Positions 3 through 47,200 of a DNA stretch of 64,000 bases are shown in pieces (the stretch's first letter is position 1; every line of letters starts with the position of its first letter). The notes under the pieces are model-generated. The model was not told the origin of the DNA and made no database searches. It saw only the letters and a program-made list of their open reading frames with translations. This stretch comes from Longimicrobium sp. Its GTDB lineage: Bacteria; Gemmatimonadota; Gemmatimonadetes; Longimicrobiales; Longimicrobiaceae. The stretch is from contig NZ_DATIND010000152.1 of assembly GCF_035474595.1 (NCBI RefSeq), positions 3,518 to 67,517 of the forward strand. The letters run 5' to 3'. Position numbers and translations under genes: made by a program.

Positions 3-3000
3 CTGGATGTGGACGCGCTCCGCCGCGCGCTCGGCGAGATCGTCCATCGCCACGAATCGCTGCGGACCACGTTCGCGGCGACGGCGGACGGGTCGGTGCA
101 GGTCGTTCACCCACAAGGGGATAGGGGACAGGGGACGGGGGACGGGGAGCACGGCGGGTTCCATCTCCCGGTCTACGATCTGCGCGCGGATCCCGATGCG
201 GAGGCAGAGGCGCGGCGGATCGCGCGGATGGAGGCGGAGACGCCGTTCGACCTGACGCGCGACCTGCTGCTGCGCGCGGTGCTCGTCCGCGTCGCCGAGG
301 ACGAGCATCTGCTGGTGCTCAATCTCCATCACGTCGCGGGGGACGGGTGGTCCGTCGGCGTGCTCTTCCGCGAGCTGGCGGCGCTGTACGCGGCGTTCCG
401 CGCGGGTGAGCCGTCTCCGCTCCCCGACCTTCCCGTGCAGTACGCGGATTTCGCGGTGTGGCAGCGCGAATGGCTGCGCGAGGAGGTGCTGGAGGCGCAG
501 CTCGCGTACTGGCGCGGCCGCCTCGCCGGCGCGCCCGCGGTGCTGGAGCTGCCGACGGACCGTCCGCGTCCGGCCACGCAGAGCTACCGCGGCGCCGTCG
601 TCCCCTTCGACGTCCCCGCAGGGCTGGCGGCGCGGCTGCGCGAGGCGGCGCGGCGCGCGGACGCCACGCCGTTCATGGTGCTGCTGGCGGGCTTCGGGCT
701 CCTCATCCACCGCCTCAGCGGCCGCGACGACGTGGTGGTCGGCTCGCCCATCGCGGGGCGCGTGCGGCGCGAGGTGGAGGGGATGATCGGGTTCTTCGTG
801 AACACGATGGCGCTGCGCACCGACCTCTCCGGCGACCCCTCGTTCGCGCGGCTGATCGCGCGGGTGCGGGAGACGACGCTGGACGCGTACGCGCACCAGG
901 ACCTGCCGTTCGAGCGCGTGGTCGAGGAGCTGCAGCCGGAGCGGACGCTCAGCCGCAACCCGCTGTTCCAGGTGGCGTTCGCGCTGCAGAACGTGGCGAT
1001 GGAGCCGGTGGACGCGCCCGGCGTGCGGCTGCGGCTGGAGGACGTGGACAGCGGCACCAGCAAGTTCGACCTCTTCCTGGAGATGCTGGAGGAGGGCGGC
1101 CGCCTCCGCGGAAACCTGGAGTACGCGACGGATCTCTGGGAGCGCGCGTCGGCCGAGCGGATGGTGTCGCTCTTCATGCGCCTGCTGGAGGAGATGGTTG
1201 GCGATGCAAACCGCCCCATCTCCGCCGCGGGGCTGCTGACCGATGCGGCGCGAACCGAGCTGCTCGCGATCGGAGGCGAGACGGCGCGCGCCTATCCGCG
1301 CGATTCCACCATCCCCGCGCGCTTCGCGGCGATCGCCGCCGCGTGCCCGGACGCCGTCGCCGTCGCGTGGGACGGCGGCGCGATGTCGTACGCGGAGCTG
1401 GACGCGCGCTCCAATCGTCTCGCGCACCACCTGATCGCGCACGGCGTCGGCCCGGACGCGCCCGTCGCGCTGCTGGCGGAGCGCTCGCCGGAGCTGGTCG
1501 TCGCCATCCTCTCGATCCTGAAGGCGGGCGGTGCCTACGTCCCCCTCAACCCCAAATATCCCCGCAGCCGCATCGCGCTGATGCTGGAGGATTGCGGCGC
1601 GCGGCTCGTGATCACCGACGGTCCGCGGGAGATGGGGCGCGCGGGGATGACGGTCGTGCGGCTGGACACGGACGCGGCGGCGATTGCGTCCCGACCGGCC
1701 GATGCGCCGCGTGTCGCCATCGATGCGGAGAACGCGGCGTACGTCATCTACACGTCGGGGTCGACAGGGCGGCCGAAGGGGGTGGTGGTGCCGCATCGCG
1801 CGGTGCTGCGGCTGGTGATCGGGAACGGCTTCGCCGAGATGGGCGCGGACCAGACGTGGCTCCAACTGGCCCCTGTAGCGTTCGACGCGAGCACGCTGGA
1901 GCTGTGGGCGCCGCTGCTGAACGGCGGCCGGCTGGCGCAGTATCCCCCCATCGAGGTGGACCCGGCGGAACTGGGTGCGTTCATCCGGCGGCAGGGCGTC
2001 ACCGGCGCGTGGCTCACCGCTGGCCTCTTCCACGCGATGGTGGACGTCGCGCCCGACGCCATCTTCGCGCTGCGCCAGCTCCTGGCGGGCGGCGACGTCC
2101 TTTCCGCGCCGCACGTGCGCCGGGTGCTGGAATCGGCGCCGCATCTGTGCCTCATCAACGGCTACGGGCCCACCGAGAACACGACGTTCTCCTGCTGCCG
2201 CACCATCGTCGCGGCGGACGTGGCGTGCGCGTCCATCCCCATCGGCACGCCCATCTCCAACAGCACCGCGTACGTTCTGGACGAGCGGATGCGCCCCGTC
2301 CCTCCCGGCATCCCCGGCGAGCTGTACGTGGGCGGCGACGGCCTGGCGCGCGGCTACCTGGGCGCCCCCGCGCTGACGGCCGAGCGCTACGTCCCGCACC
2401 CGTTCAGCGACGTGCCCGGCGCGCGTCTGTACCGCACCGGCGACCGGGTGAGATGGTGCGAAAGTGCGAAAGTGCGAGAGTGCGAAAGTAACTCAACGCG
2501 CGGTGGCGCCTTTTCTCCTCCGACACTCCAGCACCCGACGCTTACGCAATCAGTTGCAGGCCCCGCCGATCCCGTCCCTCCCCCAGGCAGTTTTGGGGGA
2601 GGGAAAGGCGAGGGACGAGCCAGGGAGAGGGCCCGCGGAGCCGAGGAAACGCGCCCGGATTCGTCCGGCGACGAGTCCACTCTCGCACTTTCGCACTCTC
2701 GCACTTTCGCACTTCAGTTCCTCGGCCGCATCGACGAGCAGGTCAAAATTCGCGGCTACCGCATCGAGCCCGGCGAGGTCGCGGCGGTGCTGGAGCGCAG
2801 CCCGCTCGTGGCGCGCGCCGCCGTCCACGTGCGCGAGGACGCGCCGGGGGAGAAGCGCCTCGCCGCCTACGTCATCCCCGCGAAGCGCGAAACCGTCAGC
2901 GGCACGGAAGATGGGGAGACGGCGGACAGGCAGGTGCGGCAGTGGGAGACGCTGTTCGACGACGTCTACACCGGCTCGCGGGGGACGGAAGCGGGGGACG

Positions 3001-44227: not shown

Positions 44228-47200
44228 ATGAACCGCAAGAACGTCGAGGACCTCTACCCGCTCTCCCCGCTGCAGCAGGGAATGCTGTTCCACACGCTCT
44301 ACTCGCCGGGGTCGGGCGCGTACCTGGAGCAGATCAGCATGCGCCTGCGCGGCGCGGTCGACACGGACGCGTTCCGCCGCGCGTGGCAGGCCGTGGTGGA
44401 CCGCCACCCCGTGCTCCGCACCGGCTTCGTGTGGGAGGGCGTCCCGCAGCCGCTGCAGGTGGTCTTCCGCCAGGCCGAGCTCCCCTTCACGCACCAGGAC
44501 TGGCGCGCGCTTCCGCCGGCCGGGCAGGAGCGGCGCTTCGCGGCGGAGATGGAGATGGAGCGCGCGCGCGGCTTCGACCTGGCGCGCGCGCCGCTCGTCC
44601 GCGTGCGCCTCTACCGCACGGCCGACGACGAGCACCGCTTCGTGCTGGCGTCGCACCACATGCTGCTGGACGGGTGGTCGCTCCCCCTGGTGCTGGGCGA
44701 GTTCGGCGCGCTCTACCACGGGTTCGTGCGTGGCGCAAAGGTGGCGCTCCCCGCGCGCCGGCCGTTCCGCGACTACATCGCCTGGCTGCGCGGGCAGGAT
44801 GCGGGCGCCGCCGAGGCGTTCTGGCGCGCGCGGCTGGCTGGGTTCGCGTCGCCCACGCCGCTGCCGCTGGACCGTGCCCCGCACCGCGCCGGCGCTCCCG
44901 CCGAGGCGCACGCGCAGGAGCAGGCGCACCTCCCGCCGGAGCTGGCGTCCGCGCTGGATTCCGTCGCGCGCCACCTGCGCGTCACGGCCAGCGGGGTGAT
45001 GCAGTGCGCATGGGCCGCCGTCCTGGCCGCGTACGCGGGCGAGCGCGACGTGGTCTTCGGCGCCACCGTCTCCGGCCGCCCGGCGGAGCTGCCGGGGGTG
45101 GAGGAGATGGTGGGGATGTTCATCAACACCGTCCCCGTCCGCATCCGCCTCCCCCGCGCCGGCAGCGTGGGCGACTGGATCCAGGCGGCGCACCGCGAGC
45201 AGGCCGAGGCGCGGCTGTACGAGCACGCGCCGCTGGCCGAGGTCCGCACCTGGAGCCCGGTTCCCGCCGAGAGCGGGCTTTTCGAGACGCTGCTGGTCTA
45301 CGAGAACTATCCGCTCGACGCGCTCGGCGGCGGCGCGGAAGGGGCGGACGACGGGGCTTTCGAGATCGTAGAGGGGCACTCGCCGGAGCGGACCAACTAC
45401 CCGCTCTCGCTCGTCGCCGCGCCCTCGCCCGAGTCGTTTCGCGTCACCGCTACGTACGATCCCGGGCGGCTGGACGCCGAGTCCGTGCGCGCTGTCCTCG
45501 GCGGCCTGCGCAACGTGCTGGAGCGGATCGCGGAAGATGCGTCGCGCCCCATCGCGGACCTCACGCCGCTGGATGCCGCGGAGGCGCGCCGCATCACCCG
45601 CGATCTCGACGGCGACGTGCCCGAGAATCCGCGCGGCGACACGGTGCACGCGCTGTTCGAGGCGGCCGCGGCGCGCACGCCGGACGCCGTCGCCCTCGCG
45701 CACGGCGGCGAGCGCATCGCGTACGCGGAGCTGAACGCGCGCGCCAACCGCCTGGCCCGCCGCCTCCGCGCCCTTGGCGTCACCGCTGAGACGCCCGTCG
45801 GCGTGTGCCTGGCGCGCACGCCGGACCTCGTCGCCGCCCTGCTCGCGGTGCTGAAGGCGGGCGGCGCCTACATCCCCCTCGACCCCGCCTATCCCTCCGA
45901 CCGGCTGGGGTGGATGCTGGGGGATGCGGGCGCCCCGCTCGTCATCGCCCAGCGCGGCACCGCCGCCGCCATCGCCGGGACGGCCGCGCGCGTGCTGTTG
46001 CTGGATGACGAGCGGGAGGCGATCGGCCGCGAATCGGAAGACGATCCGGAGCCCGTCACGACGGCCGGGAACCTGGCGTGGATCCTCTACACGTCGGGCT
46101 CGACGGGGCGGCCGAAGGGGGTGCAGATCGAGCACCGCAGCGCCGCCGCCTTCCTGCACTGGATGCGCAAGTGGGTGCCGGAGGAGGAGATGGGCGGAAT
46201 CCTCTTCTCCACCTCCATCTCCTTCGACGTCTCCGTCGCGGAGATCTTTTTCGCGCTGGCGTGGGGCGGCAGGGCGGTGATGGTCGAGAACGCGCTCTCG
46301 CTCGCGGAGCCGGGCGCCGGCGCGGGCGTCCGCCGCGCGAGCATGGTTCCCGCCGCAGCCGCGGAGCTGGCACAAACGGGCCGCATCCCCCCGACCGTCC
46401 GCACCTTCGCGCTCGCCGGCGAGCCGCTGCCGCCTGCCGTCGCCGAGGCGCTGTACGCGCTCCCGCACGTCCACCGCGTGGAGAACCTGTACGGTCCGAC
46501 GGAGGATACGACGTACTCGTGCGCGTGGCTCGTCCCGCGCGGGGCGGGGGAGATGCGGATCGGGCGGCCGATCGCCGGGTCGCGCGCGTACGTGCTGGAC
46601 GACCTGCTGCGCCCCGTCCCCATCGGCGCGCGCGGCGAGCTGTACCTGGCCGGAGACGGCCTCGCGCGCGGCTACCGCGCTCGCCCGGGAATGACGGCGG
46701 AGCGCTTCCTTCCCGATCCTTTCGGGACCGCCGGAACGCGGATGTACCGCACCGGCGACCTGGCGCGATGGAGGGGCGAAAGTGCGAAAGTGCGAGAGTG
46801 CGAAAGTAACTCACCGCGAGATGAGGCTTTCGCCTTTCCGACACGCGGTGGCTCGACGCTCACGCCAGCGGATGCAGGCCGCGCCGACCCCGTCCCTCCC
46901 CCAGTCGGTTTTGGGGGAGGGACAGGCGAGGAACGAGCCAGGGAGAGGGCCCACGAAGCGTCCGAAGCACACAGCAGTTCGTCGAGTGACGAACCCACTC
47001 TCGCACCTTCGCACTCTCGCACTTTCGCACTGGAGTACCTGGGCCGAGCCGACTTCCAGGTGAAGGTACGCGGCGTCCGCATCGAGCCGGGGGAGATCGA
47101 GGCCGTGCTGCTCGCGCATCCGGACGTGGACGAGGCTGTCGTCATCGCCCGCCCGTCGGAATCGGGAGACGCTCGGCTCATCGCCTACGTCGCCGGATCG

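Follow-up and report, generated by a model that had tools for sequence, protein, structure and literature searches.

How does a palindromic repeat that otherwise resides mostly between genes come to fill the same codon-level site in nearly every adenylation (A) domain of one biosynthetic assembly line? The question arises from a 64,000-nt stretch of Longimicrobium sp. DNA (assembly GCF_035474595.1, contig NZ_DATIND010000152.1, positions 3,518 to 67,517), hereafter the window, which has a G+C content of 70-77% and carries on its plus strand (9-47671) a hybrid nonribosomal peptide synthetase/polyketide synthase (NRPS/PKS) assembly line that comprises nine A domains along with two KS-AT-KR-ACP modules. 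Proteins of Longimicrobium or Longimicrobiaceae are the nearest matches to the A domains in the databases, which also list two proteins of the window itself, from an 85-kb contig. In eight of the nine, translation reveals 63-89 additional codons, in frame, between the motifs A7 (YRTGDRxRW) and A8 (LxFLGR). The original prediction, made from the letters of the window, had described these inserts as copies of one palindromic element, and both the translations and the A7-to-A8 distances match its eight inserts, their codon counts and their frame exactly, confirming that the observation is real. The element is real and undescribed in the literature searched, and it is probably, though by no means securely, a tolerated selfish repeat comparable to the Rickettsia palindromic elements (RPEs), gained after the A domains had diverged.

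The filled A domains read YRTGDxxRW, followed by an insert that ends in LSHSRTFA and then by LxFLGR (Table 1). Along the assembly line, the inserts measure 85, 63, 83, 84, 81, 77, 89 and 86 codons (189-267 nt), and the corresponding distances from A7 to A8 are 282, 216, 276, 279, 270, 258, 294 and 285 nt, as against 42 nt in the single empty domain, every one of these values being a multiple of 3. None of the eight inserts contains an in-frame stop, and the copies are distinguished from each other by at least 6 separate indels, each again a multiple of 3. The NRPS/PKS open reading frames (ORFs) span 47 kb with their motifs retained; given that the whole line is open and its motifs are intact, the inserts are very probably translated.

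All copies share one layout: a left arm, a variable left spacer, a 60-nt core, a variable right spacer and a right arm. The left arm consists of four GTGCGARA octamers terminating in AGTAAC, and the right arm of four TYTCGCAC octamers, being 12-18 nt longer in three copies. The arms measure 34-49 nt and are 86-92% complementary over 49 nt; the arm pattern GTGCGAAAGTGCGAGAGTGCGAAAGT, with up to 3 mismatches allowed, is matched 30 times in the window and never in 100 shuffled versions. A block of 21-24 nt recurs in the left spacer of four copies. The core is near-invariant and resembles bacterial REPs (repetitive extragenic palindromes), with a 12-bp hairpin (GTCCCTCCCCCA-loop-TGGGGGAGGGAC) followed by ACAGGCGAGGAACGAGCCAGGGAGAGGGCC. 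The hairpin is 93% paired, five of its pairs have changes on both sides, and none of 500 shuffles reaches the observed score; of the tetranucleotides GTAG and CGTC that are conserved at one end of REPs, CGTC stands at the 5' end of the stem in every one of the eight copies of the window, but the core alignment has it in no more than 15 of its 28 sequences. When folded as single strands, two of the elements reach -78 and -102 kcal/mol (z = -6.2 and -11.6 relative to shuffles). Stop triplets are absent from arms and core on either strand, and because the octamer length, 8, is not divisible by 3, an array encodes the same periodic peptide (VRKCESAK or FRTFALSH) whatever the frame.

The same components are abundant outside the window. 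An exact scan of a genome collection for the arms yielded at least 120 loci among the matches listed (L001-L120; here and below, L numbers denote fetched DNA loci and P numbers related proteins), the window's own contig not being among them. Within these matches, to which the following array counts also refer, the arm pattern occupies more than 120 stretches, nearly all from Longimicrobium, Longimicrobiaceae or Gemmatimonadetes metagenome-assembled genomes (MAGs). The arrays contain 3-20 units, occur singly or as inverted pairs around 6 nt to more than 1 kb of DNA, and are usually located at gene borders, where they open 3-10 nt past stop codons and enclose a mosaic of REP-like hairpins that includes the core. 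They are also strongly polar. Where one flank is coding and the other non-coding, the coding DNA lies outside in 82 of 83 arrays, to the left of (GTGCGARA)n in 40 of 40 cases and to the right of (TYTCGCAC)n in 42 of 43 (e.g., L021:1985-2436, L018:1280-2120 and L087:1060-1500). The core is present in 30 copies in the fetched loci, chiefly in non-coding DNA and from several soil metagenomes. In the source run of the window, X1, a soil metagenome that contains 94% of the sampled window words, the Logan unitigs, an assembly independent of the window contig, give word depths of 1000-2750 for the arms and 400-600 for the core, compared with 9-20 for unique DNA, which places the arms at 60-150 times the unique depth. 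Judged from these sequence matches, arms and core are a genome-wide, mostly intergenic repeat family of Longimicrobiaceae and not one specific to A domains. The arm sequence was not found in the literature searched, and the octamer-bordered intergenic architecture of Longimicrobium appears to be undescribed.

A search of the window against Rfam returned nothing at the gathering threshold, and a known RNA family for the core was rejected, the sole candidate being a sub-threshold resemblance to whalefall-1 (RF01762). This model aligns at full length with two core copies (22944-23004 and 41803-41863) and shares with the core the hairpin UCYCUCC...GGAGRGACAG, a small second hairpin and then CAGGGNGAGG, but the scores of 21.5-21.9 bits stay below the gathering score of 37 and amount to a resemblance only; ten other loci holding core copies gave no whalefall-1 match at E <= 0.01.

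The A7-A8 site accounts for most of the in-frame cases found, and arm-loop-arm inserts of 30-57 residues fill it in further Longimicrobium sequences, eight of them loci (L006, L032, L039, L052, L057, L060, L082 and L109) and nine of them proteins (P0001, P0002, P0003, P0010, P0012, P0030, P0036, P0081 and P0111), and the right junction of the short forms, ...SRTFA|LEFLGR, is the same as in the window. Two additional variants were encountered: a spacer and core devoid of octamer arms at A7-A8 of an A domain from another soil metagenome (L121:2926-3110, on a 163-kb contig), and a solo right arm, adding 9 residues, at A7-A8 of two A domains of P0123. These two P0123 domains have the solo-arm insert and the A8 motif in common and form a recombination mosaic with its boundary at or just 3' of the insert. 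The long composite form was recovered only from the window's own proteins when the insert with its A7 and A8 flanks was searched exhaustively against 1.84 billion protein representatives, and 658 of about 700 A domains in the best 150 proteins of that search have the canonical A7-A8 spacing. Searching with the insert peptide alone retrieved no other protein among 5.8 billion sequences, and a synthetic short-form peptide retrieved nothing, both results probably reflecting the word index and the low-complexity query. In run X1, one unitig of depth 2 links a left arm straight to a right arm, omitting 190 nt (window 22864-23055), from which a short arm-to-arm form would seem to be present somewhere in the same sample. 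A DG turn inside some inserts (GCGGACGG in P0111, ASDGS in L039) was considered as a remnant of the host turn, but an origin from the host was dismissed, since a non-coding copy, L136, has this subterminal motif too (CGCGACGAACCC followed by an arm).

In-frame copies are also known from other positions, namely the linker between the thiolation and condensation domains of an NRPS (L038:885-916), a linker of a hydantoinase/oxoprolinase (HyuA/B)-like protein (L003:598-629) and, as the variant octamer CTCCCGCA, the A8-A9 loop of L140 and P0036. Within the window itself, a solo right arm is read in frame in a condensation-domain loop (Table 1), so that A7-A8 is not the sole permissive site.

The history of the inserts differs from that of their hosts. 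DNA identity amounts to 46-67% among the nine A cores and to 56-77% in the 150 nt 3' of the site, whereas the inserts reach 78-88%. In a poorly resolved neighbour-joining tree, the inserted domains are spread among canonical ones of several phyla and form no clade; a monophyletic insert-linked lineage of the Asub subdomain is similarly unsupported, with values of 0.544 for inserted-inserted and 0.557 for inserted-empty comparisons. A natural filled/empty pair is provided by P0111 and P0047 (RW-LADGS-LEFLGR), whose flanking DNA is 90% identical: P0111 has 96 nt in place of the 15-nt turn of P0047, and identity across the site (0.93/0.88) betrays no breakpoint. A long/short pair is formed by the third A domain of the window (A3), with a long insert and Arg AGA, and P0036, with a degenerate short insert and CGC; the two proteins are 82% identical over the 110 residues before the site and their DNA upstream of it is near-identical. 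These two pairs are decisive: the site switches between its states far more rapidly than the surrounding domain diverges, and in these sequence comparisons the version of the insert follows the genome and not the orthologue. Module duplication as the source of the inserts, which the original prediction had deemed insufficient, is rejected on the same grounds, namely the gap between host and insert identities, the lack of a clade and the existence of filled/empty and long/short pairs. We infer that the inserts were gained after the host A domains had diverged.

What is conserved in the inserts appears to be nucleic acid. Identity between copies is 0.90-0.95 in the arms and 0.96 in the core, compared with 0.62-0.73 in the spacers. 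G+C content at the first, second and third codon positions is about 0.67, 0.67 and 0.61 in the inserts versus 0.75, 0.54 and 0.93 in the host, and the spacers alone have a third-position value (GC3) of about 0.70. The inserts are rich in codons seldom used in this genome, conservation of the conserved segments extends to synonymous positions, and near-identical core DNA stands in non-coding contexts of other metagenomes. The missing codon-position signature, the rare codons and the retention of the core in non-coding DNA, taken together, argue that conservation acts on DNA (or RNA) and not on the peptide.

Rare codons are shared in the flanks as well. AGA makes up 10 of the 1473 Arg codons in the NRPS/PKS ORFs, and 7 of these 10 encode the R of RW at the end of A7 (positions 2451, 7334, 10712, 22826, 27793, 31255 and 41682). 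At the right edge, CTT CAG ('LQ') is common to four copies. GTA makes up 16 of the 1184 Val codons, and 4 of the 16 encode the V in the QVK of A8, which lies 30 nt downstream from the end of the insert (23114, 28072, 31522 and 41985), the following K being AAA in three copies. The empty domain carries none of the AGA, CTT CAG, GTA and AAA marks. A transposon would not carry flanking synonymous codons along, whereas tracts of variable length would, and the shared rare codons therefore point to gene conversion. No direct repeat attributable to target-site duplication was found at the eight window copies or at 13 intergenic palindromes. In NRPS and PKS clusters, concerted evolution through gene conversion leaves tracts that otherwise diverged modules of a cluster have in common and whose mosaic boundaries fall at conserved motifs; the present case would be different in that the homogenised tract is essentially a foreign repeat with a few flanking codons and not a functional part of a module.

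At the protein level, the site, which precedes the A-domain hinge by a few residues, corresponds to the tip of the A7-A8 β-hairpin. Solved A domains align with the inserted ones as two chain-contiguous blocks, meaning that the insert replaces a turn of 3-5 residues. We modelled with AlphaFold2 the A domain of insert 4 (A5), the copy chosen for both the structure model and the unitig check. Its mean predicted local distance difference test (pLDDT) score is 87 overall, above 90 outside the insert and 43-62 inside it; the two hairpin strands are prolonged by about 6 and about 4 insert residues, and the remainder is low-confidence coil with one weak helix. The short form gives the same picture. 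The insert is thus predicted to be a disordered loop on an intact A domain. No Pfam domain covers it, and this, together with the pLDDT of 43-62, led us to reject a folded catalytic auxiliary domain. An intein was also rejected. Inteins were judged by an N-terminal Cys or Ser, a C-terminal His-Asn followed by Cys, Ser or Thr, and a Hint fold, which takes about 130 residues or more; the inserts begin with Cys in 7 of 8 copies but end in ...SRTFA followed by Leu, comprise 63-89 residues and are predicted to be disordered.

Taking these observations together, we lean, with little more than even confidence, towards a tolerated, RPE-like selfish repeat that was gained after A-domain divergence, spread among the A domains mainly by gene conversion and became homogenised at the DNA level. 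Each element would be a copy of a composite non-coding palindromic repeat native to Longimicrobiaceae genomes, which took the place of the 5-codon turn of the A7-A8 β-hairpin with the frame kept, and would be translated as a largely disordered loop of 63-89 residues that the A-domain fold tolerates. From there, gene conversion or homologous recombination, for which the conserved DNA of A7 and A8 would provide the anchors, may have carried it from A domain to A domain, the conversion tracts dragging along a few flanking synonymous codons. The uniformity of arms and hairpin would stem from DNA-level processes and not from selection on the peptide, candidate homogenisers being conversion against the many genomic copies or a hairpin-dependent constraint, and the net outcome would be tolerated selfish or neutral DNA with no catalytic role.

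Several observations weigh against this explanation. The rare-codon argument is based on few sites. Composite, arm-loop-arm, solo-arm and core-only forms all sit at exactly A7-A8, and the right junction, ...CTTTCGCA|CTN GAG TTC CTG GG, is near-constant across genomes, which would also fit insertion with a target preference. Between copies, the spacers are 27-38% different, beyond what simple recent conversion of the whole element would leave, and thus call either for several source copies or for old copies in which arms and core were selectively homogenised. A benefit would likewise be compatible with 8 of 9 sites being filled and with the frame being kept. Congruence between insert and host phylogenies has no discriminating power as a test, because the host segments hold so little shared signal: their identity matrices correlate with one another at a rho of only 0.02-0.36 (rank correlation), and none of them correlates with the insert matrix. 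Finally, in the A5 copy, the last 30 nt from the right arm into A8 are bridged by unitigs only in part.

The variety of forms at one site favours a rival, a site-preferring mobile element, in which a transposase or recombinase acting in trans moves the octamer palindrome and, separately, the core, so that each A domain was hit independently; GTGCG in the 'VRW' codons (GTG CGN TGG) resembles the octamer and offers a possible route of targeting. Such an element would account for the filling of one codon-level site in A domains that are 46-67% identical and in several genomes, for the four forms at that site (composite, short, the solo arm of P0123 and the core-only L121), for the filled/empty pair with 90% identical flanks and for spacers 27-38% different, as if drawn from separate source copies. 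The arrays moreover behave as termini of discrete non-coding cassettes, with a polarity of 82/83 in the matches listed, and in L109 the A7 codons pass directly into an array (GTACGA|GTGCGAGA). We nevertheless consider it rather unlikely, given that neither the 8 A-domain copies nor the 13 intergenic palindromes have a target-site duplication, that the 15-nt turn is replaced rather than interrupted, that copies have rare codons in common beyond the palindrome, as far as 36 nt downstream, that Pfam searches of the window ORFs found no transposase and that other in-frame sites exist. The original prediction of a selfish element homing on A-domain DNA is supported as regards the repeat element and, in its stated form, unsupported as regards the A-domain-specific homing, the family being genome-wide, found at other in-frame sites and accompanied by shared rare codons. 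The DNA-level conservation, strongest in the paired parts, the great stability of the predicted folds and the location exactly at the boundary of the Acore and Asub subdomains could alternatively be read as a role of the nucleic acid itself, the 34-49-bp stems serving as translation pause or RNase III sites or as portable homology for module recombination. Identity indeed falls across the site, from 0.82 to 0.55 in Asub between A3 and P0036 and, between the two A domains of P0123 (Longimicrobium sp., 6864 aa; residues 4730 and 6364), from 0.94/0.88 up to A7 to 0.66 in Asub. Like drops occur without inserts, however (P0004/P0073, 0.75 to 0.63; P0007/P0028, 0.71 to 0.58), the filled/empty pair has no breakpoint (0.93/0.88), and repeats that are mostly intergenic need no NRPS-specific role, so that we find this proposal doubtful. 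To its most specific version we attach equally little credence: the palindromes would be portable joints, near-identical blocks of 35-60 nt in nearly all A domains of a genome that give recombination a common landing site for swapping substrate-selecting A cores between modules. On that reading, mRNA hairpins might in addition separate the translation or folding of Acore and Asub, and the palindromes would belong to a wider system of polar octamer arrays marking the borders of coding and non-coding DNA.

Domestication of the insert as a functional protein loop, an option that the original prediction had raised, is very unlikely. A loop that tethers, docks a partner or modulates the rotation of Asub would agree with a frame held through at least 6 indels without a stop, with 8 of 9 sites filled a few residues before the hinge and with conserved peptide segments such as LSHSRTFA; the lack of an MbtH gene in the window, which holds by motif regular expression, the sole check made, would agree with it too. 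Yet the conserved segments retain synonymous positions and rare codons, their conservation equals that of intergenic copies, GC3 is of a non-coding type (about 0.6 versus 0.93), the same DNA is conserved in non-coding places and the octamer arrays give one peptide in all frames, which makes peptide 'conservation' automatic. AlphaFold2 predicts disorder for long and short forms alike (pLDDT 43-62), close relatives have another form or no insert, the insert peptide alone finds no match in 5.8 billion sequences, and the long form is confined to the window proteins among the 1.84 billion representatives. Least credible of all is an assembly artefact, that is, wrong placement of a high-copy repeat within conserved NRPS DNA during metagenome assembly. 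The soil-metagenome origin invites the suspicion, as do the arms, core and A8 motif, which are high-depth repeats where unitigs break, and the stretch 23102-23115, over which no unitig was placed. Against it, each copy has its own spacers, the frame is kept in all eight, and the same kind of insert occupies the same site in independent assemblies from other samples and in MAGs. In A5, unitigs at the host-like depth of 9-18 lead from the host A7 into the left arm, from the left arm through the spacer into the core, and from the core through the spacer into the right arm. The unitigs, being independent of the window contig, support this copy from A7 through the right arm, and less fully at the junction of right arm and A8, where coverage is incomplete.

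Among known systems, the RPEs to which the original prediction compared the element are an apt parallel as regards features. As far as the account in PMC10969869 goes (citing Ogata et al. 2000), RPEs are short palindromic repeats found in frame in protein genes, where they are translated, and also in non-coding DNA, and are regarded as selfish. The Longimicrobium element shares with them, on that account, an in-frame palindrome that is apparently read through, a tolerated position and the presence of non-coding copies. It differs in that RPEs, as described there, occupy separate positions in a large number of unrelated genes, whereas here a single site of a paralogous domain is filled eight times in one cluster and again in other genomes. 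It further differs in its tandem-octamer arms and nested REP-like interior, in its spread, which appears to involve gene conversion, and in its host, a free-living member of the Gemmatimonadota with 73% G+C. The core agrees with REPs and the bacterial interspersed mosaic elements (BIMEs) that they compose in being a 12-bp G+C-rich hairpin with compensatory changes, of high copy number and mostly extragenic, in mosaic arrays (PMC3733652); the eight window copies are the intragenic exception in a mostly extragenic family. REPs inside genes are known, and two Xanthomonas species have different REPs at about the same recB site (PMC3733652). Unlike described REPs, the core, some 60 nt in length, ends in a conserved 3' tail (ACAG...CAGGGAGAGGGCC) and is bracketed by tandem-octamer arms; no gene for a REP-associated tyrosine transposase (RAYT) was seen, and these elements are not known to fill a single site repeatedly across many paralogous domains.

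The MITEs (miniature transposable elements with inverted repeats) of the ERIC, BOX and Nezha type (PMC10969869) are likewise small, non-coding and multicopy, have terminal inverted repeats (TIRs) and occasionally form in-frame ORF fusions. The element has TIRs (arms of 34-49 nt, 86-92% complementary; 30 matches versus 0 in shuffles) and is small, non-coding and present in many copies, as counted over pooled Longimicrobium-type genomes and by depth in run X1; target-site duplications are lacking. It departs from MITEs in that its TIRs are octamer arrays of 3-20 units around an interior of 6 nt to more than 1 kb among the matches listed, and no cognate insertion sequence is known for an octamer-armed element. 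Interrupted A domains, in turn, accommodate folded catalytic domains at a2-a3, a6-a7 or a8-a9 and stay functional (PMC8341866). The inserts resemble these in adding sequence to loops between core motifs and differ in consisting of a disordered, repeat-derived peptide at a7-a8, an interruption for which, in agreement with the original prediction, we found no description in the literature.

For NRPS enzymology, the structure models suggest that, in assembly lines that appear intact, the tip of the A7-A8 β-hairpin accommodates 30-90 disordered residues, so that nature itself would have validated it as a permissive position at which tags or fusions could be placed. A practical caution follows for annotation, as domain predictors split inserted A domains in two. 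The findings would extend the phenomenon of selfish DNA within proteins, known from Rickettsia, to a free-living, high-G+C soil phylum, and reveal an undescribed repeat architecture of Longimicrobium intergenic DNA. Two features are unusual, namely tandem-octamer arms that lack stop triplets on either strand and the repeated filling of one site across paralogous domains with signs of conversion-driven spread. Should the palindromes act as recombination joints after all, they would constitute a natural, repeat-driven device for module shuffling, which would bear on the origin of NRPS diversity and could inspire engineering sites.

Table 1. Inserts and related features of the window (coordinates in nt from the first letter of the window).
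Feature	Position	Strand	Remarks
Insert 1	2457..2711	+	85 codons; A domain of module 1; left arm ~2455-2492, core 2574-2633, right arm ~2678-2711
Insert 2	7340..7528	+	63 codons, the shortest; 42 nt of right spacer and arm deleted; core 7433-7492
Insert 3	10718..10966	+	83 codons; right arm 18 nt longer (PSRTFA); core 10811-10870
Insert 4	22832..23083	+	84 codons; A domain A5; left arm 22830-22867, core 22946-23005, right arm 23050-23083
Insert 5	27799..28041	+	81 codons; right arm 12 nt longer (PSLA); core 27892-27951
Insert 6	31261..31491	+	77 codons; core 31354-31413
Insert 7	41688..41954	+	89 codons; core 41805-41864; best palindrome (arm complementarity 92% over 49 nt; folds at -102 kcal/mol)
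Insert 8	46772..47029	+	86 codons; extra codon at left junction (RW-RG-ESAKV); Arg of RW is CGA, not AGA; core 46892-46951
Empty site, A7-A8 of the ninth A domain	14072..14131	+	canonical RWLDDGRLRFLGR; turn YRTGDRVRW-LDDGR-LRFLGR (5 residues); Arg CGC; QVK with GTG AAG
Solo right arm, (TCTCGCAC)x3 + TTTCGCAC	8542..8588	+	in frame (SLSHSRTLALSH); condensation-domain loop directly before HHxxxDG
AGA TGG ('RW' codons)	22826..22831	+	left edge of the repeated block in A5
GTA AAA (V and K of the A8 motif QVK)	23114..23119	+	30 nt 3' of insert 4
Partial copy of the core hairpin	38597..38626	-	non-coding stretch between NRPS genes

The first A domain (ORF 9-4631) is doubly interrupted, carrying a methyltransferase (residues 1038-1139) between A8 and A9, the classical kind of A-domain interruption, besides the palindrome at A7-A8. 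Downstream of the last C-A-T gene (47672-64000), no thioesterase or MbtH-like motif was seen; Pfam searches of the tested ORFs in this region identified only a phosphotransferase (APH), a PIN domain and a PrsW-type protease, and several long ORFs match no family.

The window also contains other repeats. A second family of 61-75 nt, 89-97% identical and containing CCACCTCTCCCGTACCGGGAGAGGTGG, is represented on the plus strand at 14842-14916, 19797-19857 and 32210-32280, in each case directly 3' of the stop codon of an NRPS/PKS gene, and once in inverted orientation at about 52.5 kb (52529-52603, minus strand). The intergenic regions at 14.8-15.3, 19.8-20.1 and 32.2-32.6 kb have additional G+C-rich palindromes in common. 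A third repeat, the inverted pair AGTCCGCGAAGGCGGACTT...GCGAATTCATTCGC, is found at 37231-37278 and 50882-50929, and its motif is repeated in a Longimicrobium intergenic region (L018:1690-1990) with octamer arrays on its flanks.

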